Shown here piece after piece: positions 3 through 63,119 of a DNA stretch of 63,119 nucleotides. The position numbers and the translations under genes are program-made. Within the stretch, counting starts at the first letter, position 1. Every line of letters begins with the position of its first letter. Source of the DNA: a plasmid; the NCBI RefSeq assembly GCF_056746865.1, contig NZ_JBWKMP010000006.1, one strand, 5' to 3'. The notes under the pieces were generated by a model that had not been told where the DNA came from, made no database searches, and saw only the letters and a list, made by a program, of their open reading frames with translations.

Positions 3-170
3 GGACTGTCCGGTGCCGCACGGGACGCAGAGAAGATGAAGAAAGGCGATGCGGCTGAACATGCAGAGTTCCATATGAAAGACAACCGCTGGGTGCCTGG
101 CTGGATGTGTGCACCACGTCCACAGACGGATGCCACTGAACGCACCGATAACCTGGCTGATGCCGCCTGA
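3..170 (+). CDS. 3-prime end of an upstream leading-region gene, truncated by the window edge; product unknown
   Basis: Open frame from the window edge to TGA at 168-170, immediately upstream of psiB; no motif recognised. Confidence 0.3.
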
Positions 171-222
171 TGAACAACCACACCGCCCCGCCGGAGACGG
201 GGCGGCAGAGGGAGATACCGTG

Positions 223-657
223 ATGAAAACTGAACTGACACTGAATGCCCTGCAGTCCATGAACGCACAGGAATATGAAGATATCCGTGCTGCGGGAAGC
301 GATATGCGCCGTAATCTCACTCACGAGGTGATGCGTGAAGTGGACGCACCGGCTAACTGGATGATGAACGGAGAGTATGGCAGTGAGTTCGGGGGCTTTT
401 TCCCCGTCCAGGTTCGTTTCACGCCAGCCCACGAACGTTTCCACCTGGCATTATGTTCGCCGGGAGACGTCTCTCAGCTCTGGATGCTGGTTCTGGTGAA
501 TGGTGGTGGACAGCCTTTCGCCGTCGTTCAGGTGCAACATATCTTCACGCCTGTCGCGATCAGTCACACGCTGGCGCTTGCCGCGACACTGGATGCGCAG
601 GGATACAGTGTTAACGACATCATCCATATCCTGATGGCAGAAGGAGGTCAGGCATGA
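223..657 (+). CDS. psiB: PsiB, plasmid SOS-inhibition protein B
   Basis: 144-aa product [25 protein letters not shown]... matches PsiB as recalled; GAGGGA Shine-Dalgarno upstream of ATG 223; the ORF-track start at 109 is an upstream extension. Confidence 0.9.
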
Positions 658-1373
658 GCGCACGTTCACGGGCACTGATCCCCCTCAGCGCAGAACAACA
701 GGCCGCCATGCAGGCGGTGGCTGTCACAGAACAACGTCGTCGTCAGGGACGCACACTTTCAGCATGGCCTTATGCCACCGCTTTCTTTCGCTGCCTGAAT
801 GGCAGTCGCCGGATTTCGCTGACCGATCTCCGCTTTTTTGCCCCTGCGCTGACGAAGGAGGAATTTCATGGCAACCGTCTCCTGTGGCTGGCTGCCGTGG
901 ATAAACTGATTGAAAGTTTTGGGGAAGTCTGTGTTCTTCCCCTGCCATCCGATGCGGGGCACCGTCTGTTCCCGTCCGTGCCTTTTCGTGAAGGTGAGCG
1001 TCGTCGTCAGAAAACCACGCTGACAGAGCAGAAATACAGCCGCCAGCGGGAACGTGAGGCAGAACGACGGGAACTGGAATACCAGACATGTTTTGCTCAG
1101 GCGCAGATTGACCTTGCGTTTCATACTCCCGCCACGGTCGGAAGCTGGTTGTCCCGCTGGTCTGGTGTTGTTGAGGAGCATGATCTGGAAACGATTTTCT
1201 GGGGGTGGTGCGGGCGTTTTCCATCACTGTCATCATTTGACCGGTTTTTCTGGCAGGAGGAACCACTCTGGCGGCTGATTTTTGAAGCCGGTGAGGCCGG
1301 TCGTGGTGCACCGGTACAGGTACGTGCACTTGAGCAGTGGATGATCCCGAACAAGCTGGAGAACGTAATATGA
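654..1373 (+). CDS. psiA: PsiA, plasmid SOS-inhibition protein A
   Basis: 239-aa ORF overlapping the psiB stop (ATGA); psiB-psiA pairing typical of F/IncI leading regions. Confidence 0.85.
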
Positions 1374-1966
1374 TGAAATCAGACGAAAAATACCAGGTTC
1401 CCGCGTGGATGCGACCTCTGTTGCCGTTGCTCTGCAACACCGGGGGGAACGATCCGGAAGAACTGCTGAATGATACAGAAACCACTGCCAGTGCGAATGT
1501 TGTCCGTTATGTACTGATAGTTGCTGTGCGGTCGCAGGTTGATCTGCTGCAGCTTCTGTACAGGAAAGGGCTGTTGCGCACAGAGATACCAGGTGGCTTT
1601 TCACCGGAAGAAGCGCAGGCACTCCTGGATAATCTGGTGCGCAGCCATATCAGCAAGGCGCTGTCGGGCGAGCGAATGGCAGCCCGTGACAGAAATGCCG
1701 ATCTGGCCTGGATTGGACAGCAACTGGTCGATGCCGCCTGGTTTGTCCGTGCCACACTGGAAGCGCATGGGATGAGCGTCGGAAATGAGAGTCCCCCTGC
1801 TCCGCCGGAGACAATGCCGGACATACAGACACGGGAACTGGTGATGTTGATCAAGCGACTGGCATCATCGCTGAAAGCGGTGAAACCGGACAGTTGTGTG
1901 GTGCGTGAAGCGCAGGACTGGCTGCGCGACAGAAAACTTGTGGATATCACAGATATTCTCCGGTGA
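1370..1966 (+). CDS. hypothetical leading-region protein downstream of psiA
   Basis: 198-aa ORF from ATG 1370 overlapping the psiA stop; same strand as the other leading-region genes; no motif recognised. Confidence 0.55.
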   Translation: MMKSDEKYQVPAWMRPLLPLLCNTGGNDPEELLNDTETTASANVVRYVLIVAVRSQVDLLQLLYRKGLLRTEIPGGFSPEEAQALLDNLVRSHISKALSGERMAARDRNADLAWIGQQLVDAAWFVRATLEAHGMSVGNESPPAPPETMPDIQTRELVMLIKRLASSLKAVKPDSCVVREAQDWLRDRKLVDITDILR

Positions 1967-1989
1967 ACCAGGCATGTATATTTTACGCA

Positions 1990-2420
1990 GGGACACGCCG
2001 ATCATGATCGTTTCATATCAGGGGTGGTCTGGAGGTCATGCGGCGTGTCCTCTGCACTCGCCGGAATAAGGAAGTCGCCGGCGGCTCCGCTTTTACCCGG
2101 CCATGCGGGGCATGGCCTTGTGGGTTTTCAGCTCTGTGGCCTCAGCGTCGTGTGCGGGCTGTGCCGTGCCTCCATCTTAGCCGGGCTGGCAGGGATGCAA
2201 GGGTACGCTTCGCCGCTGCGGTCACCCGGTCCCTCCTTCCCGTCTGCCGTGATTTTCCGGTCGTTCACCCGCTCAGATTTCGCGGTCTCACCCTCCAACT
2301 CCCGCCAGCCGTGTGCGTCAGGCTGCGGCTTCCCTTGCGCCCCTGCATCCCCGCCTTATCGCCCGGCTTTTATGGAGGCACGGCACCGCCCGGTGTCGCA
2401 GAACATGTGACTATGGAGGA
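1990..2420 (+). promoter_or_regulatory. GC-rich structured intergenic region upstream of ardA; possible single-strand promoter
   Basis: ~430 bp with no convincing ORF, high GC and many short inverted repeats, directly 5-prime of ardA; its sequence differs from the two Frpo-like copies. Confidence 0.25.
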
Positions 2421-2427
2421 TTCGGGA

Positions 2428-2928
2428 ATGTCTGTTGTTGCACCTGCTGTATACGTTGGAACCTGGCACAAATACAACTGTGGAAGCATCGCCGGACGCT
2501 GGTTTGACCTGACCACGTTTGATGATGAGCGCGACTTTTTCGCCGCCTGCCGTGCTCTTCACCAGGATGAAGCCGATCCTGAACTGATGTTTCAGGATTA
2601 TGAGGGATTCCCGGGGAATATGGCCTCTGAATGCCATATCAACTGGGCCTGGGTTGAAGGCTTCCGCCAGGCACGGGATGAAGGCTGCGAAGAGGCTTAT
2701 CGTCTCTGGGTGGATGATACCGGTGAGACGGATTTTGACACCTTCCGCGATGCCTGGTGGGGCGAGGCTGACAGTGAGGAGGCTTTTGCGGTTGAGTTCG
2801 TCAGTGATACCGGCCTGCTGGCTGACGTGCCGGAGACGGTGGCGCTCTATTTTGACTATGAGGCGTATGCGCGGGATTTATTCCTGGACTCCTTCACCTT
2901 TATTGACGGTCATGTGTTCCGTCGGTGA
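2428..2928 (+). CDS. ardA: ArdA antirestriction protein (anti type I restriction-modification)
   Basis: 166-aa acidic product [62 protein letters not shown]... matches ArdA as recalled; GGAGGA Shine-Dalgarno before ATG 2428. Confidence 0.92.
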
Positions 2929-3294
2929 TTTACTCCCCCGCTCCGGCGGGGGTATGGCCTGCCAGGCCGCCGGAAAACCCTGGCAGGCTTACGCCTGCCT
3001 GAAATGCAGGAGGGCCGCGCCTGCGGCGCTGCCCTTCCTGCCCGTCATGGTGTGAGGCATTTTTCTGTTATGTCGTTTCTGTTGTTCTGATTTCCGGAGG
3101 CGGGGACACCTTCGGCTCCCGGCTGCCTGGCGGCATCCGGTCGTCAGGCCCGACTCCGACAGGCAGCTGCTGGCGCACCCGCCAGTCTCCGCCGAACCCG
3201 CTGGCGCGGTTTCGGGCTGCCGCTACGGTCCGATGTCTGAAAAACCAGGCTTGCAGCGACCGTTCCGGTCGCGCCGCCCCTGTCGCGCCGGAAA

Positions 3295-15696: not shown

Positions 15697-15869
15697 GACA
15701 AAGTCTCCATTTCTGGAATTTAAATCAAACGGAAAGGTTAAAAATTTATTTGCAGGCGATAAGAGCTAACCAGAGGAATTAGCCGTGTGATAAAAGGATT
15801 GTTGCAGATACGAAAGTCGTTAGAATAGCTGCGGGCGCTTGAGGCTGTATGCCGAAAGCGTTTTGTGGA

Positions 15870-15935
15870 CGGTATACAGCAGAAAGCCCCAGGCGATTTT
15901 TTTATCAATCAACCAAGGGCTCTACTGTAATGCCT
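15870..15935 (-). ncRNA. pndB: candidate PndB (Sok-like) antisense RNA
   Basis: - strand promoter-like TTGCCT-N17-TACTATAAT (15977-15943) directed across the pndC translation-initiation region; boundaries are approximate. Confidence 0.3.
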
Positions 15936-16133
15936 AGACAACATTATAGTAGCCCGATAACCGCCGTAAGGCAATGGAGGGGCTATGATGCCACAGCGAA
16001 CGTTTTTAATGATGTTAATCGTCGTCTGTGTGACGATTCTGTGTTTTGTCTGGATGGTGAGGGATTCGCTTTGCGGACTCCGGCTCCAGCAGGGAAACAC
16101 AGTGCTTGTGGCAACGTTAGCCTACGAAGTTAA
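15930..16133 (+). CDS. pndC: PndC (Mok-like overlapping reading frame)
   Basis: ATG 15930 frame MPRQHYSSPITAVRQWRGYDATANVF... overlaps pndA in a different frame, as in hok/mok. Confidence 0.5.
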   Translation: MPRQHYSSPITAVRQWRGYDATANVFNDVNRRLCDDSVFCLDGEGFALRTPAPAGKHSACGNVSLRS

Positions 16134-16463: not shown

Positions 16464-16614
16464 CGGATTTTCTCTCTGTATTTATGGGTAGTTATCGAAC
16501 TGAATGTGCCAGTTTTTTCAGGAGACGGCAAAGTTGAGATGATTGGTTCTGATTCAGAGCATGAGTTTCCCGGTGTGACGGGCATGTCGGGCGGATTTTG
16601 AGAAACAACAGATG

Positions 16615-16646
16615 TAAAAAAACCGACTGGTGAGGTCGGTTTTTTT
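16615..16646. terminator. bidirectional rho-independent terminator
   Basis: A7-ACCGAC-TGGTGAG-GTCGGT-T6. Confidence 0.55.
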
Positions 16647-16770
16647 ACTGTTCCGTTACAGAGTGGGTGGCTCTGACCGGAGGTCTATAACTGACGCTAA
16701 AAATGATAATTTGTTCTAACTGATTAATGTTCATGCCATAAGTTTACGGGAAAGGCTGACCACCTGATAT

Positions 16771-32627: not shown

Positions 32628-35600
32628 TCATCGGCCGGGGCTGTGGGAGAGATCCTGATGCAGAGTTTTTTCCTGCCTGTCCTCCGGCTTTTGGCTGTTG
32701 GACCACTGCTGCCATGACTGCTCGAAGCCCAGGTTCCGGTACAACGCATCAGGTTGTTTTTCCGGCGTGTAGACAGCAGCAAAAAGCGGTTCTTCCCGGG
32801 TTTTCAGATGAAACTGCATAAGCTCCGGTGCGGGGCGATTCGTGCTGTCAGCATCGTGGTTTACCGCTTCACCATAACCTGCAAAGCGTAAACCTTTGTC
32901 GGTCAGCGCATTGATAACCAGCTGACTGTTGTCGGCTGATGGGGTGGCCAGTGCCGGATACAATGTGCCGTTCAGCCGGACCACACCCTGCAGATGTTCA
33001 TCGGCACTCTGGACAAGTAGCAGGTTGAGTTCACGCGTATCCTTATCCACTGATCCCAGAACAGGTGTCAGCTTGTCAGGGGCTGCGCTGGTTATTTCTG
33101 TTACCTGATTTGCGTTCTGTGGCGCGGAGACCGGATGTCGGTCTTCACCGATAAACAGATGTGAGCCGACGTTTTCTGGCATACGTAACGCTTTCATCTC
33201 TTCGGGCCACCCCTGGCTGATTTGCGCAGCCACTTTCATAAAGGTTTCGACCGGAATCGCCTGAATACGCTGACCTTTATCCGGATTATCATGTGATACC
33301 GAGATCCCGTTGGTAACTGACTCCATGGACCACTTATTCCGGAAACGTGCTTTTTGCTCTCCCGGGAGGATGAATTGTTCGCGGTTCTGAAGTGTCAGTG
33401 TCACCACGTCACCTTTCTGATGGTTTTTGACCAGACTTTCCAGTTGTTCCCCCCAGTAGAGTTTGCTGCCACTGCGGTTTTTAAGCTCAACAAAGAAACT
33501 CTCTCCTTTGCCGGGTGCATATTCAGCACGACCAAAATTGTGCAGTACGGCAGTCACGCTCTCTCCCGGGCGAAGTTTTCCTGGTGGTTCTTCACCTTGT
33601 GCCGCATCTGCCGTTTTGCCAGGTTCAGCCGGTGATGATGCAGGGACGGTGCTGACGGTTGATGCTTCAGGGGCAACTGGGGACGCCGGGGATTGTGTGG
33701 CTTCTTTTTCCTGAACGGGGTCAGGGACAGCCGGTTGTTCAGGGGTATTCCGGTTAAGTTCCGGTGTTGGCTGATGGGTGACAACAGCATCCTTACCGAC
33801 AGCCATTTCCTTGCGTAATTTTTCGAGCTCCAGACGCTGATCAGGCAATTTCATGCGCACATTGATGTTGTGCTCGATAATCAACTGCATCGCTTTTTGC
33901 TTAAAGGCATCACTGCCCGTCAGCTCAATGACGCCACCATAAAAATTAGTGGCCACAGCAAGTGCGGCCAGAACACTGCGATCGTCATTGCTGGCACCGT
34001 TGACCATTTCCAGCCGGTTTACCCGGTCAATGAAGGCAGGTTTGCCATCCAGTTTGTACAGGACGGTTCTGTCTGCTCGTTTTTCCCCTTCAGTGATTTA
34101 ATGATTTCGTCCAGATTGAGCGATATCGGTGCATCAGGACGTTCCGGGGCGTAGACAATACTGTCAGGTGTCGGTGTGGTCGTCGTGGTTTCCGGTGAGG
34201 GCGTGGGATCACTGTTCTCATGTGCCTGTGAATCCGTTTTTTTACGCGTAAAAAAGCCACGCGCTTTGTCGAGAAACGATGAAGTATTATCAGAAGGTGA
34301 TGTGCTCTGAACAGGTTGCTGTGGATTGGGTTCATCCCGGACAGCCGGTTCTGCAGTATCTGTTGTGGCCTGAAGTTCTGACTCATCTGCCTGAACGTGG
34401 TCTGTGTCCGGTTGCGACGGCATATCACTGTTTTCCTGCAGATGCTCAGGATTTTCATTGTTCATCAGCTCCTGATATGCGCTGTAGTTTTCGTATTCTT
34501 CGGGGCCATCTGACTCAGGAAGGAACGGCTCTGGCTGAAGGGGAATGTCTTCAGTTACATGGCTGACCGCCTCTTCCCGGGGAGTATCCGGGGATATTCC
34601 GGTGCTTTGTTTGTCATCAGGCTCCGTCATCACGGTCATTTCCTCTTTGACTGCATCAGGGGAAGGTGATGGCTCGGCTGATTCATTCATGGTTTCAGAT
34701 GAGGGACTGTCTTCAGGGGATGCGGGGGCGGCAGCAGGGGCCGGTATTTCAGGTGAAGTGCCGGATTCCTGTTGTGACTCGTTTTTTTCCGGTTGTGACA
34801 GTTCGGCTTCAAATTCACGCCAGTCTTTATCTGTGGCCACCGAGACAACTTTTTCCGGAGGTTCCGCCGGATGAGCGGGTTCATCAGGGGCAGATGCCGT
34901 TGTACTTTCCGGGGACGCCGGTGATTCTGCAGGGGAGTCCTGAACTACAGAGCTTTCCGTTTGCGCCTGAACGTTATCAGCGTGCCGCTCATCTTTGCCG
35001 TTATTTTCAGTGGCGTGACTGGTAAATGACTGTGTTTCATCAGCAATGTTACTGCTGGAAGCAGCTGGTTGTTCCTGCTGCGTGGCGGACGGCAGAGAAG
35101 GTCCCTGGTCATGGCTGTGCCCTGTATCGGGTGATGTTTCAGGATATTCTGTCGGAGTCATGGTTTTTTCCTCAGTGTGGACCGGTGTAAAAACGAGGTT
35201 GCCGATCACCAGTGCCTCGCGGATTTCCGGGGTGTTACTGTTGGGGGTGGAAACCCCGATGTGTTCTAACTGGGCGTTGATGACATGCTGAAAAGCGGCC
35301 CGTCCCCGGCTTGCGTCCAGGTCATTGAAATCGGTCAGCCCCTGCGCTTTTTCGGCATCGGTGAACGCAGGAAAGATGACCGTTCCTCCTGTCAGTTCTG
35401 CGGCTTTTGTTGCACTGACGATACCTTTGTTAACCCGGATTGCATGATCGTTGTCGGCACAGAAGATAAAGGGGCTTTGCGTCCACTTTTGCCGGGCATT
35501 TTCGGCAACGGCAATCATGTTGCCTCCATCCACCGTCATCAGTACCGGAAGGCCCGTGGCTTCGTGCAGGGAGGCCGCAGTGGCATAGCCCTCGGCAAAC

Positions 35601-36394
35601 AGTACCGGCTGACCGTTGCGCGGTGTGCCCAGCGCAAACCAGTTACCGGTTTTCTCTGAATCTTTCAGGATGCGGGCATCCTTCCCCCCGGTGACCGGAA
35701 TACGCTGGTAAGAGCGTATCGCGCCGTTACGGTTACTGAAGGGAATAACCAGTTCATTTTTGTTGTTTACCCGCACCCCCGGTGCAGCCTGAATGCCTTT
35801 CCGGGTCAGGTATTCATGTGCTGTGGCCTGCGGCCATTTGTTGACATAGCGGCGGGCATACGCGGCCTGTCGGTTGTACTGTGCTTTCAGTTCCCGCTCC
35901 GCGTCCTCCCTGCGTTGCATTGAATGCGCTTTCAGGTGGAGTCTTGCGCGGGGATCTGTCTGTTCTCCGCCGGAGAAGGTCCAGGTGATCGGCGAATCAT
36001 CCGCGCTGCGATAATCCCTGTACCAGCCGGCAGGTCTGCCGTCCAGGAATCCGCGATATGCGCCACTTTTTTGTCCTTTTTTGTCATCGGCGGTCGGGAC
36101 ACGGTGGATTTTCCCGTCCATGACCGGCAGTTCTTTCAGAACCAGTCCGGCATTCTCCAGAACCTGGGCAAACTCGGTGACCGGATCACTGCCGTTCATG
36201 GAGACGTCCTGTGGCCGGGGCAGCCAGCGGTCCAGCCTGGACAGGTCCGCCCCCGGGCGGGCGAACCAGAGTTTGTGCTCCTTGTCCCAGATGACGGGCG
36301 TGTGCCCGTTCATCGGGGGATGTGCTTTTTTGAGATCTTCTATTTCATCTGCAGGCACGGCAAGCCAGGTGCGGTAGCGGGATACAGACGGCAT
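32628..36394 (-). pseudogene. sogL: Sog DNA primase (SogL/SogS), frameshifted between 34022 and 34098
   Basis: N-terminal primase part (ORF ending 34019, start ATG 36394 with AGGAGA) and 459-aa C-terminal ORF (32628-34007) are in different frames; a G4A5 run at 34081-34089 is the likely indel site; Asp/Glu/Pro-rich linker is typical of Sog. Confidence 0.85.
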
Positions 36395-36483
36395 GAGTGC
36401 TTCTCCTGAAAAAAGACGGAAAAAAACCACCGCCGGAAGCCGGGGGTGGCTGGGGGGATAGAAAATCGGGGGAGAAATGTTTG

Positions 36484-37035
36484 TCAGGGTCTCCAGTCTG
36501 TACCCTTATTCCAGCGATCCTGCCAGTGTTCAAGATATTGTGCGGCTACATCCGGCATATTCTTGAGCACAACGACATTCTCTGAATTCTTGCGTGCAGC
36601 AGCACGAGAGAAGTTATAGGAGCCAGTTTCAACCGTGTTTCCGTCAACAATGATGACTTTGTCGTGATGGATGGGGAAGGCATCTACAGTCCGGAGAGGA
36701 ATGTCCAGCAGGTTGATATATTTCATCGCTTCCTGACTTGCCCGGTTCGTATTCCCCTTGTCATCAACAACAATACGGACGTCCACTCCGCGTTTTTTCG
36801 CTTTTGCCAGCGCATGCATTACATCCGGGTCGGTGAAGGAATATGCCATCATCCTGATGGAGCTTTCCGCACTGTTGATTGTGTCAAGCACCAGAGCGGA
36901 TGCGCTTCCTTCAGGAGAAAAGCCGACCTTCACGGATGGCGTGTCGATCATTGCAAACGATGGTGTCGTGAACAGTAACGGGCATGCCAGTAGCGATACC
37001 CGGAGCAGAGTAACGATAGTTTTTTTACCTGACAT
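36484..37035 (-). CDS. nuc: Nuc endonuclease (phospholipase D family)
   Basis: 183-aa product from ATG 37035 (MSGKKTIVTLL..., GGAG upstream) with signal peptide and HxK(x)4D motif (HHDKVIIVD). Confidence 0.8.
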   Translation of the reverse strand: MSGKKTIVTLLRVSLLACPLLFTTPSFAMIDTPSVKVGFSPEGSASALVLDTINSAESSIRMMAYSFTDPDVMHALAKAKKRGVDVRIVVDDKGNTNRASQEAMKYINLLDIPLRTVDAFPIHHDKVIIVDGNTVETGSYNFSRAAARKNSENVVVLKNMPDVAAQYLEHWQDRWNKGTDWRP

Positions 37036-37049
37036 AAAGACTCCAGAAT

Positions 37050-37340
37050 TTAATCGAGGCCAGTCCAGTCTCGTGGTGATTCCGTATGGTGGCGATACCA
37101 CCATGGACGACCGGAGGCGATGGCCCCTCTCAGAATGCTGAAAATGCGTGTACAGATAGTCCTGACAGTCCAGCCTGAACGGTCGAGAATAACGAAAAAT
37201 AAAATGATGCCGGTGCAAATCCAGAAGGTTGTTTTGGAGGGAAAGGGGCATATAAACAGATAAATCATGGTGAACGGCAGAGGTACGCCCTGGATGTTGA
37301 CTGGCGGTGTTGCATATCGCCAGAAACCTTCTCTTTTCAT
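37050..37340 (-). CDS. traK: TraK (small membrane protein)
   Basis: 96-aa hydrophobic ORF between traJ and nuc; assigned by synteny. Confidence 0.55.
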   Translation of the reverse strand: MKREGFWRYATPPVNIQGVPLPFTMIYLFICPFPSKTTFWICTGIILFFVILDRSGWTVRTICTRIFSILRGAIASGRPWWYRHHTESPRDWTGLD

Positions 37341-38485
37341 GACCGTAACTCCCCTGGCGGGATAAAAAGAATCGCTTCTCTTCGGTCAACTTCATTCCGG
37401 ATATACATTTCCAGAATCTGGTCCCGGATACGGCGCTTCTCCTGCCGGATTATGGCATCAATGTGATGCCCCCACTCTGCATGCGGCATTCCGGAAAGAT
37501 TGTCGCGAAGCTCATCGTTAATGACGATATATTCCCGGACGGCTTTACGACCACCGTCATTTGTTCTGACCAGAACCTGAACCAGAATGAACTGCAACAG
37601 TGACAGGACAGCCCAGGCCATCGAATCCCTGATGACAGGGGGAAACAGCCCAAGAAGACGTGCCAGCGTTTCACCAGGAGATTTCGTATGCATGGTGCTC
37701 AGGCAGTAATGCCCGGTGTTGCCTGCCTGTACCGCTGCGTCGGCGGTTTCGTTATCCCTGATCTCACCAACACCGATAATTTCGGGATTACGTCGTACAG
37801 CAGAACGCAGTCCGGCAGCAAAACTGACCACATCACGCCCGATTTCTGCCTGATGCGGTGGGAGCAGATCGTTTTCATTTCCCAGGATATATTCCACCGG
37901 GTCTTCATATGTCACGATTTTGGCGTCGGGGAAATTGTCCATAATGTAACGGTACAGTGCTGAACACAGCGTTGATTTTCCTGACCCGGTTTCACCACAT
38001 ACAAATCCCAGACCGCTTTTGCAGACCATTGCTTCAAGCAGGTCTGGTTCAATGTTCATGGAGAGAATGTCCGGTATTTCTGTCGGGATGACACGCATGG
38101 TTATTGAGATTGCTTTCTCCTCCGCACCAGATGTGCCCTGAATGAGGTGAGAGCGTAACCGGATGCGTTCTCCGCGTTTAAGACCATAGCGCCCGGATGC
38201 ATCCCCGTTAATCTGTATCGTCCTGTCAACCGGATTGCCTGCCAGAACGCGGGGAATGACTTCCCGACCGAACAGTTCATCAATCAGGGAGGACATGAGT
38301 GTGGTTGGTAACGTTGCACTGGAACAACGCACCCGTCGGCCAAAGCGACTGACAGATACAGGTGACCCGCCGGTCAGATCCACATCACTGACTTTATGTG
38401 CGGCACACCAGACAAAGAAATGCCGTAGTTCATCTGCAGTGAAACGCTGAAACGGAAAAAGACCAAACTCATCAGGAATATTCAT
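37337..38485 (-). CDS. traJ: TraJ (DotB/PilT-like secretion ATPase)
   Basis: 382-aa ORF with Walker A GETGSGKST. Confidence 0.85.
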   Translation of the reverse strand: MNIPDEFGLFPFQRFTADELRHFFVWCAAHKVSDVDLTGGSPVSVSRFGRRVRCSSATLPTTLMSSLIDELFGREVIPRVLAGNPVDRTIQINGDASGRYGLKRGERIRLRSHLIQGTSGAEEKAISITMRVIPTEIPDILSMNIEPDLLEAMVCKSGLGFVCGETGSGKSTLCSALYRYIMDNFPDAKIVTYEDPVEYILGNENDLLPPHQAEIGRDVVSFAAGLRSAVRRNPEIIGVGEIRDNETADAAVQAGNTGHYCLSTMHTKSPGETLARLLGLFPPVIRDSMAWAVLSLLQFILVQVLVRTNDGGRKAVREYIVINDELRDNLSGMPHAEWGHHIDAIIRQEKRRIRDQILEMYIRNEVDRREAILFIPPGELRS

Positions 38486-59447: not shown

Positions 59448-59735
59448 TCACATTTTTTCGTTTTCTTTAGCTGTATTGCTAATCATGAAAACGAACGTTC
59501 GCATCAGCACAGCAGAGCGAAGTGCATCATATCCTTCCAGATTTAAGTTCTTCAGGCTTCGCTTCAGGTAGGTTCGTACCGTTTCGGGAGAAAGCCGACA
59601 GTTCTGAGCAATGGCGTCGTAAGGAACACCCATTGCGTAAAAAACGCAGACTTTAAGCTGGTTTGTTGATAGCTCGGGAAACATGCCTTCCAACAGAGTG
59701 ATGGCCGGGAGTTTCTGTATCAGTTGAGGTGACAT
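59448..59735 (-). CDS. traA: TraA, small LuxR/GerE-family HTH regulator
   Basis: 95 aa from ATG 59735 (GGAGA upstream) with GerE-type HTH (LSTNQLKVCVFYAMGVPYDAIAQNCRLSPETVRTYLKRSLKNL). Confidence 0.65.
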   Translation of the reverse strand: MSPQLIQKLPAITLLEGMFPELSTNQLKVCVFYAMGVPYDAIAQNCRLSPETVRTYLKRSLKNLNLEGYDALRSAVLMRTFVFMISNTAKENEKM

Positions 59736-60074
59736 AGCAAAGGTCTCCGATGACAACTAAAAACGCTATCACTGAGTTCCTACGCTCATTGGTGATAGCC
59801 CAGACGGGGGTAGGAATACCGGCGTCATCGGAAACCGGCCAGGCTAATGCCTGCCCCGCCTGAGCTACCATAGATGACGACAAGAAATACAAGTTCCTGT
59901 CTTTATGGTATGGCAAAAAACGACGCCAAATGAAGAAATTAACTTCTGCGCCGACGATGACTACGCGGGTTCCTACGCCCGATCACAGTTTTGCCTGTGA
60001 CCAGTAAAGGGTACTTAGTATAACGCACCGAGTCAACTAACAGCTTAAAAAACATACAAAAAAGCGTCAAAACT

Positions 60075-60279: not shown

Positions 60280-60560
60280 TTCTATTTACGATCGAATGAT
60301 CTACAAAATGATTTTTTAAAGGTTTTTTAGATCGTTTAATTGCATTAAAACAGAATATTATTCTGTTAGGTGGATCGGTTGTAAGATAAATGATCGTGAG
60401 TAGGACAAAAGTCGATCTTTTAATCCAAAAGAAAGATCTAAAGCAGAAAAATCTGCTTTTAAAAATAGATTTTATTTTTTTGACGCAGGTCAAGATTAAC
60501 TTATTAGAGGTATTAGTGAGGAGGCACTGGAAGAGAAGAGATCGTTGTAATGCTTTTCAA
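60280..60560. promoter_or_regulatory. AT-rich GATC-dense intergenic region
   Basis: Eight GATC sites in ~270 bp, several palindromic (AGATCTAAAGCAGAAAAATCTGCTTT); no credible ORF. Confidence 0.35.
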
Positions 60561-60721
60561 ATTAACGTAAAGCGGGTATATTTCGGCTGTTATTAGCTGT
60601 GCAGAGGGTGGCACTCTGTGGAGCAAAGCGGCGAAAGTCGGACGGCAGAATGCGCCATAAGGCATTCAGGAGAGATGGCATGTACGGGCAGTAAGTCAGA
60701 AGACTGAAGATGTTCCGGAAG

Positions 60722-60797
60722 CCATAAAAGGAAAACCCCCACTATCTTTCTTACGAACTTGGCGGAACGACGAAAGATAGTGGGGGCCTCACAGAAT
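60722..60797 (-). ncRNA. inc: Inc antisense RNA (copy-number control of repZ)
   Basis: Perfect 15-bp stem (60736-60750 / 60772-60786) with loop containing TTGGCG (60759-60764); - strand promoter TTGAAT-N17-TATACT (60832-60806) and T-rich tail after the stem. Confidence 0.55.
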
Positions 60798-60811
60798 ACG
60801 GGTAAAGTATA

Positions 60812-60901
60812 ATGAAACCGTACCAGAGATTCAACCCTGTGCAGTGTATAAATACACGGCACAATCGCTCCGCCATAAGCGACAGCTTGTGGCAGGTCTG
60901 A
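60812..60901 (+). CDS. repY: RepY leader peptide
   Basis: 29-codon ORF MKPYQRFNPVQCINTRHNRSAISDSLWQV ending at TGA 60899-60901, overlapping the repZ start. Confidence 0.65.
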   Translation: MKPYQRFNPVQCINTRHNRSAISDSLWQV

Positions 60902-61920
60902 AGAATACTCCATATAACGCAGTACACTGGAGTCAGTTAGCACCCGAAGAGCAGATCCGTTTCTGGGAAGACTATGAAGCGGGAAGGGCGACCACTTTCC
61001 TGGTTGAACCGGAAAGGAAGCGCACGAAGCGTCGTCGTGGTGAGCACTCCACCAAACCCAAATGCGAAAATCCGTCCTGGTATCGTCCTGAGCGCTATAA
61101 GGCGCTGAGCGGGCAGCTCGGGCACGCCTACAACCGTCTGGTGAAAAAGGACCCGGTGACCGGCGAGCAGAGCCTGCGCATGCACATGTCTCTGCATCCT
61201 TTTTACGTGCAGAAACGAACGTATGTCGGTCGCAAATATGCTTTCCGTCCGGAAAAACAACGCCTCCTCGATGCCGTCTGGCCGGTTCTGGTCAGCTTCA
61301 GTGATGCGGGCACACATACCGTAGGCATGAGTGTTTCCCGTCTGGCCAGAGAAATCAGCCCGAAAGACAGCAAGGGGAAGGTTATTCCGGAACTGGAAGT
61401 GACGGTCTCCCGCCTTTCCCGTTTGCTGGCCGAACAGGTACGTTTTGGTGTGCTGGGTGTTTCAGAGGAAACCCTGTGGGACCGTGAAACCCGCCAGCGT
61501 CTGCCACGTTACGTCTGGATAACACCGGCAGGCTGGCAGATGCTGGGCGTCGACATGGTAAAACTTCACGAACAGCAGCAGAAACGACTGCGTGAAAGTG
61601 AAATCCGCCAGCAGCTCATTCGGGAAGGTGTTCTGCGTGAGGATGAAGATATCTCCGTACATGCGGCCAGAAAACGCTGGTATCTGCAGCGCAGCCAGGA
61701 TGCACTGAAACACCGTCGTGCAAAAGCGGCAGCCAGTAAGCGCGCCAGACGCCTGAAGAAACTGCCTGCCGACCAGCAGATTCATGAGATGGCAGAGTAT
61801 CTCAGGAAGCGTCTGCCGCCGGATGAAGCCTATTTTTGTTCCGATGACCATCTGAAGCGACTGGCCATCAGGGAGTTGCGTCAGCTTGAACTGACGCTGG
61901 CTGCGCCACCGCCGCACTAG
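60889..61920 (+). CDS. repZ: RepZ replication initiator (IncFII-RepA-family)
   Basis: 343 aa from GTG 60889 (no in-frame ATG available); preceded by repY and the Inc hairpin, followed by a DnaA box; the ORF-track start at 60844 is an upstream extension. Confidence 0.75.
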   Translation: MAGLKNTPYNAVHWSQLAPEEQIRFWEDYEAGRATTFLVEPERKRTKRRRGEHSTKPKCENPSWYRPERYKALSGQLGHAYNRLVKKDPVTGEQSLRMHMSLHPFYVQKRTYVGRKYAFRPEKQRLLDAVWPVLVSFSDAGTHTVGMSVSRLAREISPKDSKGKVIPELEVTVSRLSRLLAEQVRFGVLGVSEETLWDRETRQRLPRYVWITPAGWQMLGVDMVKLHEQQQKRLRESEIRQQLIREGVLREDEDISVHAARKRWYLQRSQDALKHRRAKAAASKRARRLKKLPADQQIHEMAEYLRKRLPPDEAYFCSDDHLKRLAIRELRQLELTLAAPPPH

Positions 61921-61952
61921 ACAGCACCATTCCTTCAGCACTGAATCATCGC

Positions 61953-61975
61953 CAGCCCCTCCGGGGCTTTCGGCG
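61953..61975 (+). terminator. hairpin immediately downstream of repZ (CIS-like)
   Basis: CAGCCCC-TCC-GGGGCTT stem-loop. Confidence 0.35.
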
Positions 61976-62086
61976 CTGATTCCGCTCAGCCCAAAATCTG
62001 CAGTAATCACCTTAAATCCCCTCAGAGGGGCATATCTGCCCATAAAACCACGTATCAGTCATCAGAACATGGCCACGTTGTTTCAG

Positions 62087-62095
62087 TTATCCACA
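62087..62095 (+). promoter_or_regulatory. DnaA box in the putative oriV
   Basis: Perfect TTATCCACA ~170 bp downstream of repZ. Confidence 0.4.
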
Positions 62096-62762
62096 TAAAT
62101 CCGCAAACAAAGAACTTTAAAAAGCTGCAAACCTGAAACAGCAAACCTGCAATATAGTCCTAACCCCATTATTTAATCCCCTGCGTTGCTTCGCCGCAGG
62201 GAAAGTCTTTATCTCTGAAACCACTGTGAACAAATTAAGAGGCCTTCGCTTGCAGCGGCCAAGGCCTCGCCGCTCAGAATCAAGAAGCCTCCACGCTAAC
62301 GCGCGGGCCCCGAACCTGATTTCAGCGCAAACCTCAATGCAACCACCCACACAAACACGACGCCGCTGACCCCTCATAACTGAAAAGCAGAGAAGCCGCC
62401 CGCCCGAAGAGGACGGCGTCAGCTTGACGCTTGATATTTAATCTCCTGCCATCATTCATCTCTCAATAATGTAAAGATCACATCATCACCGACCATAACC
62501 GTTAACGCAGAGATCGCCCGACTTAATCCCATATAGCGACCACTCAACCACACCGCACAGAAGCTATTTCATGGCTGAAAGCGGGTATGGCTTCCAGACT
62601 GGCGGCGATCGTTAGCGCTAATATGATCGGTAAAGCGTACCATTTAAGCGGTTTGTTGCTGTGTAACAACGGGGTCCGGCACCTTATCCTGACGCGCATT
62701 ATTTGCCTTGTTTCGTCTGAAAGTAATCACTATGATTAAATATGATTAACAGCTAATCGGAT

Positions 62763-63047
62763 ATGCAAATGAAAAACAATACCGCACAGGCAACAAAAGT
62801 AATTACCGCGCATGTGCCATTACCTATGGCTGATAAAGTCGACCAGATGGCCGCCAGACTGGAACGCTCCCGGGGCTGGATTATCAAACAGGCGCTTTCT
62901 GCATGGCTTGCCCAGGAGGAGGAGCGTAATCGCCTGACGCTGGAAGCCCTGGACGATGTGACATCCGGACAGGTTATCGACCATCAGGCTGTACAGGCCT
63001 GGGCGGACAGCCTCAGTACTGACAATCCGTTACCGGTGCCACGCTGA
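62763..63047 (+). CDS. RelB/ParD-family antitoxin (ribbon-helix-helix)
   Basis: 94-aa ORF overlapping the start of a downstream toxin-like ORF (TGATG). Confidence 0.65.
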   Translation: MQMKNNTAQATKVITAHVPLPMADKVDQMAARLERSRGWIIKQALSAWLAQEEERNRLTLEALDDVTSGQVIDHQAVQAWADSLSTDNPLPVPR

Positions 63048-63119
63048 TGGAACTGAAGTGGACCAGTAAGGCGCTTTCTGATTTGGCGCGGTTATATGAT
63101 TTTCTGGTGCTGGCCAGTA
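63047..63119 (+). CDS. ParE/RelE-family toxin, 5-prime part only (truncated by the window edge)
   Basis: Begins MELKWTSKALSDLARLYDFLVLAS... coupled to the antitoxin stop. Confidence 0.55.
   Translation, partial: MELKWTSKALSDLARLYDFLVLAS

Follow-up and report, generated by a model that had tools for sequence, protein, structure and literature searches.

The plasmid DNA that we analyzed, a 63,119-nucleotide stretch of contig NZ_JBWKMP010000006.1 (NCBI RefSeq assembly GCF_056746865.1) to which we refer as the window, encodes a RepA-type replication initiator, RepZ, whose reading frame overlaps that of a 29-codon leader peptide, RepY, and is preceded by a stem-loop that would be the target of a small antisense RNA, Inc. 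The features of this replicon are as follows, with positions given in window coordinates.

60554 to 60582, + strand: candidate promoter for the repZ mRNA (TTTTCA, 17-nt spacer, TATATT), named from its consensus match alone
60728 to 60799, − strand: predicted Inc RNA gene, an antisense RNA of ~70 nt, with the 5′ end placed from the −10 box and the 3′ end formed by a hairpin followed by UUUUCCUUUU
60736 to 60786, + strand: stem-loop I of the repZ mRNA, the Inc target, with a 15-bp lower stem (PK-repZ match and fold)
60806 to 60834, − strand: promoter-like site for Inc RNA; −35 TTGAAT (60834 to 60829), 17-nt spacer, −10 TATACT (60811 to 60806), with 9 of 12 positions matching the consensus
60812 to 60901, + strand: repY (rep leader peptide), 29 codons, from ATG at 60812 to TGA at 60899 to 60901; product MKPYQRFNPVQCINTRHNRSAISDSLWQV
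60838 to 60863, + strand: structure II, a predicted hairpin within repY (MFE fold) that holds a nonused in-frame GTG at 60844 and includes two compensatory pairs
60865 to 60901, + strand: structure III, a predicted inhibitory hairpin (MFE fold) whose core, 60870 to 60896, is invariant in eight aligned replicons
60870 to 60875, + strand: predicted distal pseudoknot partner CCGCCA, with core CGCC at 60871 to 60874, read from the sequence
60889 to 61920, + strand: repZ, RepA-type replication initiator of 343 amino acids, GTG start, 1032 nt
61943 to 61982, + strand: G+C-rich hairpin just 3′ of repZ (−26.4 kcal/mol; z of −3.4), conserved with ColIb-P9
62087 to 62149, + strand: origin region, with a perfect DnaA box TTATCCACA at 62087 to 62095 and GCAAAC(CTG) repeats at 62103, 62127, and 62141

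Elements of the repZ control region

The control region as a whole is recognized by Rfam family RF01087 (PK-repZ), described in Rfam as the "pseudoknot of the regulatory region of the repZ gene," which matches 60728 to 60876 with 194.5 bits (E value of 5.7e-46; gathering cutoff, 44 bits) across the entire model (positions 1 to 150 of 150). The closest known system is the inc-repY-repZ-CIS-ori replicon of the IncI-alpha plasmids ColIb-P9 and R64 (Hama, Asano, Mizobuchi; RF01087). When ColIb-P9 (NC_002122) and R64 (NC_005014) are aligned with the window from 60600 to 60960, the alignments are gapless and the sole difference is a single leader base at 60638; the stretch from 60650 to 61037 is matched base for base by both plasmids. 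Stem-loop I with its UUGGCG, Inc RNA, repY, structure III, CGCC, and the GUG, as well as the initial 150 nt of repZ, are all 100% identical to their ColIb-P9/R64 counterparts. A database search returned a control region at least 99% identical to this one in 1114 plasmid records, and the 25 kb upstream form a pil/shufflon/tra backbone of the IncI1 type. The first-pass annotation had claimed that all of the parts of an IncI/IncB-type copy number control are visible here. Each part was indeed located, the named elements sit at the coordinates that it had assigned to them, and the circuit is identical in sequence to the experimentally dissected ColIb-P9 system; the alignment to the ColIb-P9 repY-repZ region, which it had proposed as a check, returned the same RepY and the same repZ start, with no different start seen.

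In stem-loop I, the arm CCCCCACTATCTTTC (60736 to 60750) pairs with the arm GAAAGATAGTGGGGG (60772 to 60786), and the 21-nt apical region between them carries TTGGCG (5′-UUGGCG-3′) at 60759 to 60764, within which GGCG occupies 60761 to 60764. The Inc-strand RNA, folded from 60800 to 60722 on the − strand, forms a single long hairpin (−34.9 kcal/mol; z = −6.8) that none of 200 shuffled sequences equaled, while the fold of the mRNA leader on the + strand has a z of −5.7. The Inc hairpin of the first-pass annotation is therefore present, but the TTGGCG loop ascribed to it sits on the + strand and belongs to the mRNA target, whose loop it forms; Inc itself has CGCCAA in its loop. The edge of the region that had been drawn at 60722 likewise needs a small adjustment, as it lies a few bases past the likely 3′ end of Inc, a U tract at ~60728 to 60735. 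From the promoter-like site, which overlaps the start of repY, Inc transcription would begin near 60799 and end near 60728, for a length of ~70 nt. This predicted − strand RNA agrees with the published Inc, a cis-antisense RNA of ~70 nt with a 3′ stretch of four U residues (PMC7491321). Incompatibility is determined by the Inc stem-loop. Transcription of the repZ mRNA, in turn, would start from the candidate promoter at 60554 to 60582, which, like the other transcript ends given here, we infer from consensus motifs. A rule-based terminator scan listed neither the Inc terminator nor the CIS hairpin downstream of repZ, the loops or T runs of which fall outside the rules of the scan; both were located by folding. 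FopA, the FinO-domain chaperone that speeds the pairing of Inc with repZ in pCol1B9, had no tblastn match within the window, and the ColIb-P9 gene for FopA lies ~4 kb past repZ, that is, past the corresponding end of the window.

To place these elements in a broader context, we aligned eight I-complex replicons that span the IncI1/B/O, I-gamma/K1, and K2/Z types. Stem I is variable among them, with 5 of its 15 pairs changing on both sides in a compensatory manner; 91.6% of the alignment cells are paired, versus 35 to 44% with slid partners, and not one of 500 shuffles reached the observed covariation. The loop CTTGGCGG, the block CCGCCATAAGCGACAGCTTGTGGC (which comprises CGCC, the Shine-Dalgarno [SD] sequence, and GUG), and the ATG and TGA of repY are, by contrast, invariant in all eight. 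The repY reading frame can be read directly from ATG to TGA, and despite amino acid substitutions, it has 29 codons and the same stop position in every one of the eight replicons, with a constant offset to the GUG and an overlap of 13 nt, which bears out the 29-codon repY of the first-pass annotation. RepY matched no family in Pfam or NCBIfam, as is expected for a leader of 29 amino acids.

In the predicted fold of structure III, 60870 to 60880 pair with 60885 to 60896. CGCC (60871 to 60874), the weak SD sequence UAAG (60876 to 60879), and the bases that follow would pair with GCUUGUGGC.GG, the GUG at 60889 to 60891 would be paired, and the repY stop codon would pair at the base of the structure. 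UGGCGG of loop I (60760 to 60765) is complementary to CCGCCA (60870 to 60875), which extends the GGCG/CGCC core of the putative pseudoknot to 6 bp. Both GGCG and CGCC are invariant in the eight-replicon alignment, and the pseudoknot pairing consequently draws no evidence from covariation.

The start of repZ merits a closer look, as the long open reading frame (ORF) that ends at 61920 follows an in-frame stop at 60778 and contains in-frame GTG codons at both 60844 and 60889. An ATG does not occur in this frame until 61180 (codon 98), so that the earlier statement that repZ has no in-frame ATG holds for the first 97 codons and fails thereafter. GTG 60889 begins 10 nt 5′ of the point at which the repY stop codon begins. 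A mechanical ORF listing gives 60844 to 61920, since GTG 60844 is the first start after the in-frame stop, and initiation there would yield a protein of 358 amino acids; this GTG is, moreover, present in all eight aligned replicons. In three of these eight (97-3250 and two K2/Z plasmids), however, an in-frame TAA lies two codons on (V-Y-stop or V-H-stop), and GTG 60844 therefore cannot be the conserved start. It also has no SD-like sequence upstream and lies inside the predicted hairpin within repY. RefSeq places the start at 60889 rather than at 60844, the repA coding sequences (CDS) of ColIb-P9, R64, and pPWD4_103 (455 to 1486) mapping exactly to 60889 to 61920 of the window, and so does the reannotation of pESBL, in which RepY (36448 to 36537) and RepZ (36525 to 37556) have the same 13-nt overlap. 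The ColIb-P9 rep gene initiates at a GUG that is masked, together with a weak SD sequence, by stable secondary structure (Asano 2014, PMC4705826), and this GUG sits beside the repY stop, within structure III. A start at 60844 is, in our assessment, exceedingly improbable. GTG 60889, 10 nt before the repY stop, is the start that had been proposed in the first pass, and its coordinates hold: they equal the RefSeq starts and fit both the GUG start of the literature and the conserved context. RepZ synthesis would then initiate at GUG 60889, require translation of repY, and be repressed by Inc. The protein itself is matched by NCBIfam NF040977 (RepA_IncFII_LM) with 315.1 bits over the full profile (1 to 266 of 266; cutoff, 70 bits) and, marginally, by Pfam IncFII_repA (PF02387) with 23.0 bits against a cutoff of 22.9.

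The predicted copy number switch and its relatives

We estimate a probability of roughly 96% that this region, equal in sequence to that of ColIb-P9 and R64, serves as the control module in the basic replicon of an IncI1 (I-alpha) plasmid and would act by the ColIb-P9 mechanism. The features described above are our own sequence observations, and their identity with ColIb-P9 is the basis on which the mechanism is carried over to this plasmid. Every sequence element of the published model (PMC4705826) is present and unchanged here. In that model, CGCC, directly 5′ of the SD sequence, becomes exposed when the ribosome terminates translation of the leader peptide, Inc RNA competes for GGCG by kissing, and a later complex blocks the SD sequence of the leader; a change of GUG to AUG weakens control in ColIb-P9 rep (PMC4705826).

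Applied to the window, the mechanism would proceed as follows. The repZ mRNA would be made from an upstream promoter, with the repZ GUG and its weak SD sequence locked in hairpin III. A ribosome translating repY would open hairpin III and, when halted at UGA 60899 to 60901, would free CGCC at 60871 to 60874 to pair with GGCG of loop I, forming a pseudoknot that would hold the repZ start open and allow a ribosome to reinitiate at GUG 60889, 10 nt upstream of the repY stop. Inc RNA (~70 nt) would be made constitutively from the opposite strand, so that its level would follow copy number. By kissing loop I through the same GGCG, Inc would first block the pseudoknot and hence repZ, and the longer Inc-mRNA duplex that would form next would block translation of repY. 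The RepZ produced would work on the downstream CIS-ori region. The first-pass annotation had regarded the region as a consistency check rather than new biology, and we judge this to be right for the copy number switch: the switch is correct but ordinary, the system being already known in detail. The ColIb-P9 mechanism was solved in the 1990s, and the sequence is identical here, so no new biology is to be expected from it.

The same design is found beyond the IncI-alpha plasmids. The RNAI-repB-repA system of the IncB plasmid pMU720 (RF01089, PK-repBA) and its IncK and IncZ counterparts share the antisense RNA, the leader peptide, the pseudoknot, and the GUG start. The loop CTTGGCGG, the block CCGCCATAAGCGACAGCTTGTGGC, and a 29-codon leader occur in the IncB, IncK, and IncZ replicons just as they do here, whereas several positions of stem-loop I differ by compensatory changes, and the RepA sequence of the K2/Z plasmids diverges directly after the start. 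Two further Rfam models matched below their thresholds, and the region is accordingly a member of neither family: RF01089 (PK-repBA) with 41.0 bits (cutoff, 45) and RF00042 (CopA) with 38.2 bits (cutoff, 60), the latter on the − strand in a match that includes the CGCCAA loop. These subthreshold matches fit distant relatives of one design. The CopA-tap-repA system of R1/IncFII shares an antisense RNA directed against a stem-loop in the leader, a translationally coupled leader peptide, and an initiator of the RepA_IncFII family. R1 has an additional repressor, CopB, and, to our knowledge, lacks an activator pseudoknot.

Sequences that flank the control region

The G+C-rich hairpin at 61943 to 61982 is one that we take to be the putative CIS/terminator, given its position, which in ColIb-P9 lies between repZ and ori. 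Three iterons have been reported 176 to 301 bp downstream of repZ (Zhang 2019, PMC6361801), and the three GCAAAC(CTG) repeats of the window sit at this distance. The CIS/ori stretch is nearly identical to that of ColIb-P9 up to ~62320. Between 62320 and 62700, the window departs from the sequences of ColIb-P9 and pPWD4_103 alike, several indels included, and similarity to pPWD4_103 returns near 62690. An ORF of 94 amino acids at 62763 to 63047 encodes a ribbon-helix-helix protein and is overlapped by the start of a RelE/ParE-type toxin gene, which is cut by the end of the window at 63119; this antitoxin and toxin start are of the allele type found in pPWD4_103 and not that of ColIb-P9 yacA/yacB.

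The window is part of a molecule, and the replicon could in principle be an inactive relic, that is, a second replicon, no longer functional, on a plasmid or chromosome that another origin maintains. Nothing that we found speaks specifically for such a relic. All of the control elements are intact and identical to those of a functional replicon, repZ is full length and free of frameshifts, and the CIS hairpin, the DnaA box, and the iteron-like repeats are all in place; control regions at least 99% identical to this one occur in over 1100 plasmid records, and the flanks are those of a normal IncI1 backbone. We consider a relic very improbable.

On its other side, the control region is preceded by two observations of a different kind. 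Just 5′ of the candidate repZ promoter, 60290 to 60540 contains eight GATC sites in ~250 nt with a G+C content of 30%, the densest 300-nt stretch of such sites in the window (background, 2.7 per kb). This cluster may subject the replicon or a promoter on the traA side to Dam/SeqA-sensitive control.

Farther upstream, before traA, the − strand carries a C4-type antisense RNA (Rfam RF01695) at 59875 to 59788, which scores 77.5 bits against a cutoff of 45, together with a subthreshold match to the Rfam c4-a1b1 target element at 60014 to 59962. Two predicted single-stranded segments of the C4-type RNA have complements nearby: UUCCUAC (59816 to 59810) is complementary to GUAGGAA at 59976 to 59970 and again at 59783 to 59777, and UCCGAUGAC (59832 to 59824) is complementary to GUCAUCG at 59961 to 59955 and to GUCAUCGGA at 59754 to 59746. 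The target at 59754 to 59746 covers the SD sequence of traA, the ATG of which is at 59735 on the − strand. The layout is that of a1 b1/C4/a2 b2 in the immI locus of phage P1. Two of the three R64-drd11-specific substitutions fall within the module, one at 59864, a paired base of the C4-like stem, and the other at 59774, which belongs to the traA leader and lies 3 nt 3′ of the a2 target. The adjoining position of the traA leader, 59773, has a T that is private to the window, as pESBL, R64-drd11, and ColIb-P9 all have a C. Window coordinates equal pESBL-EA11 coordinates plus 24364 throughout a gapless alignment, so the Hft region, 270 bp at pESBL-EA11 35394 to 35663 (Yamaichi 2015), corresponds to 59758 to 60027, which contains both the C4-type RNA and the a1b1-like element. 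Insertions or a point change in Hft derepress traA ~50-fold (Hft papers). By its sequence position, the predicted C4-type module coincides with this functionally unexplained region before traA. The two Hft papers on the superspreader region of pESBL-EA11 make no mention of a small RNA, and our literature search returned no report of a C4 antisense RNA together with IncI1 or traA.

Two other RNA matches lie far from the replicon, each above the Rfam gathering level. One is a sok antitoxin RNA at 15833 to 15990 on the + strand (131 bits), presumably the pnd/hok-sok-type postsegregational killing locus of IncI1 plasmids, and the other is AgrB at 16614 to 16694 on the − strand (50 bits).

Mosaic structure of the replicon and the typing conflict

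The identity to ColIb-P9 does not extend through repZ. Over the 1032 nt of the repZ CDS, the window has 68 mismatches to ColIb-P9 (~93.4% identity) and only ~16 to pSTY-blaCTX-M-65, a plasmid typed as Igamma/K1. All 68 are densely distributed over 61038 to 61911, and from 61038, the repZ body differs from that of ColIb-P9 by ~8% of nucleotides and 5% of amino acids. The comparison with pSTY-blaCTX-M-65 shows the reverse pattern, with eight differences in stem-loop I (60743 to 60780) and few in repZ. The RepZ protein is 95% identical to that of ColIb-P9 and 99% identical to the RepA proteins of pPWD4_103 and pSTY. The apparent junction of the recombination falls in the interval from 60932 to 61038. 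We think it probable that the replicon is a recombinant in which a ColIb-P9-type control region was joined, near codon 50 of repZ, to an Igamma/K1 repZ body, which would give the initiator a history separate from that of the incompatibility determinant and make typing by RNA disagree with typing by rep.

This arrangement is common, as at least 99% identity over 1.6 kb was found in 203 records. In pESBL-EA11, from Escherichia coli O104:H4, and in pPWD4_103, an IncI1-type control region is likewise combined with a repZ of the Igamma/K1 clade. Their control regions are 99.3 to 99.6% identical to that of the window, with few point differences. In pESBL, RepY and RepZ occupy the corresponding coordinates and overlap by the same 13 nt, and the alignment is gapless over traA, Hft, and repY.

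The mosaic bears directly on how the replicon is to be named. Typing based on repZ groups sequences with more than 95% nucleotide identity within a clade (Zhang 2019, PMC6361801), and at ~93.4% identity to ColIb-P9, the repZ CDS of the window falls outside the IncI1/B/O clade of R64 and ColIb-P9. One could argue from this that the replicon belongs to IncI-gamma/K1 rather than to IncI1 and would be compatible with ColIb-P9: MOB-suite, which types on the rep gene, assigns the nearest plasmids, pPWD4_103 and pESBL-EA11, to IncI-gamma/K1, the RepZ protein is closer to that of pSTY-blaCTX-M-65 than to that of ColIb-P9, and the mismatches to ColIb-P9 crowd 61038 to 61911. What sets incompatibility in the I complex, however, is the antisense RNA (RNAI), on which PlasmidFinder types (PMC10286972), and here, Inc, stem-loop I, and repY are identical to those of ColIb-P9, whereas eight stem-loop positions separate the window from pSTY. 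Furthermore, the literature counts pESBL, which is arranged in the same way, among the IncI1 plasmids. An assignment to IncI-gamma/K1 with compatibility toward ColIb-P9 is therefore unlikely, and the typing conflict arises because the tools type different parts of a mosaic, not because the mechanism differs. For the IncI1-type module that we favor, the identical Inc region and the RNAI-mediated nature of incompatibility (PMC10286972) predict that the plasmid would be incompatible with ColIb-P9 and R64. Details of the interaction between initiator and origin could differ slightly from those of ColIb-P9, since the RepZ body is 5% of amino acids away. The replicon assignment made in the first pass thus holds for the control module, which is of the IncI1(alpha) type, but has to be qualified for the repZ body, which from ~61038 clusters with plasmids typed IncI-gamma/K1.

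These results fix the annotation of the replicon as IncI1-type by its incompatibility RNA, with repZ read from GTG 60889 and not from the first ORF start at 60844, and the annotation should gain the Inc RNA and the hitherto unannotated 29-codon repY. The mosaic also explains why MOB-suite labels the nearest relatives of this plasmid IncI-gamma/K1. If the breakpoint is a preferred site of exchange, module swapping there could let I-complex plasmids change their incompatibility and yet retain an initiator and an origin that match.
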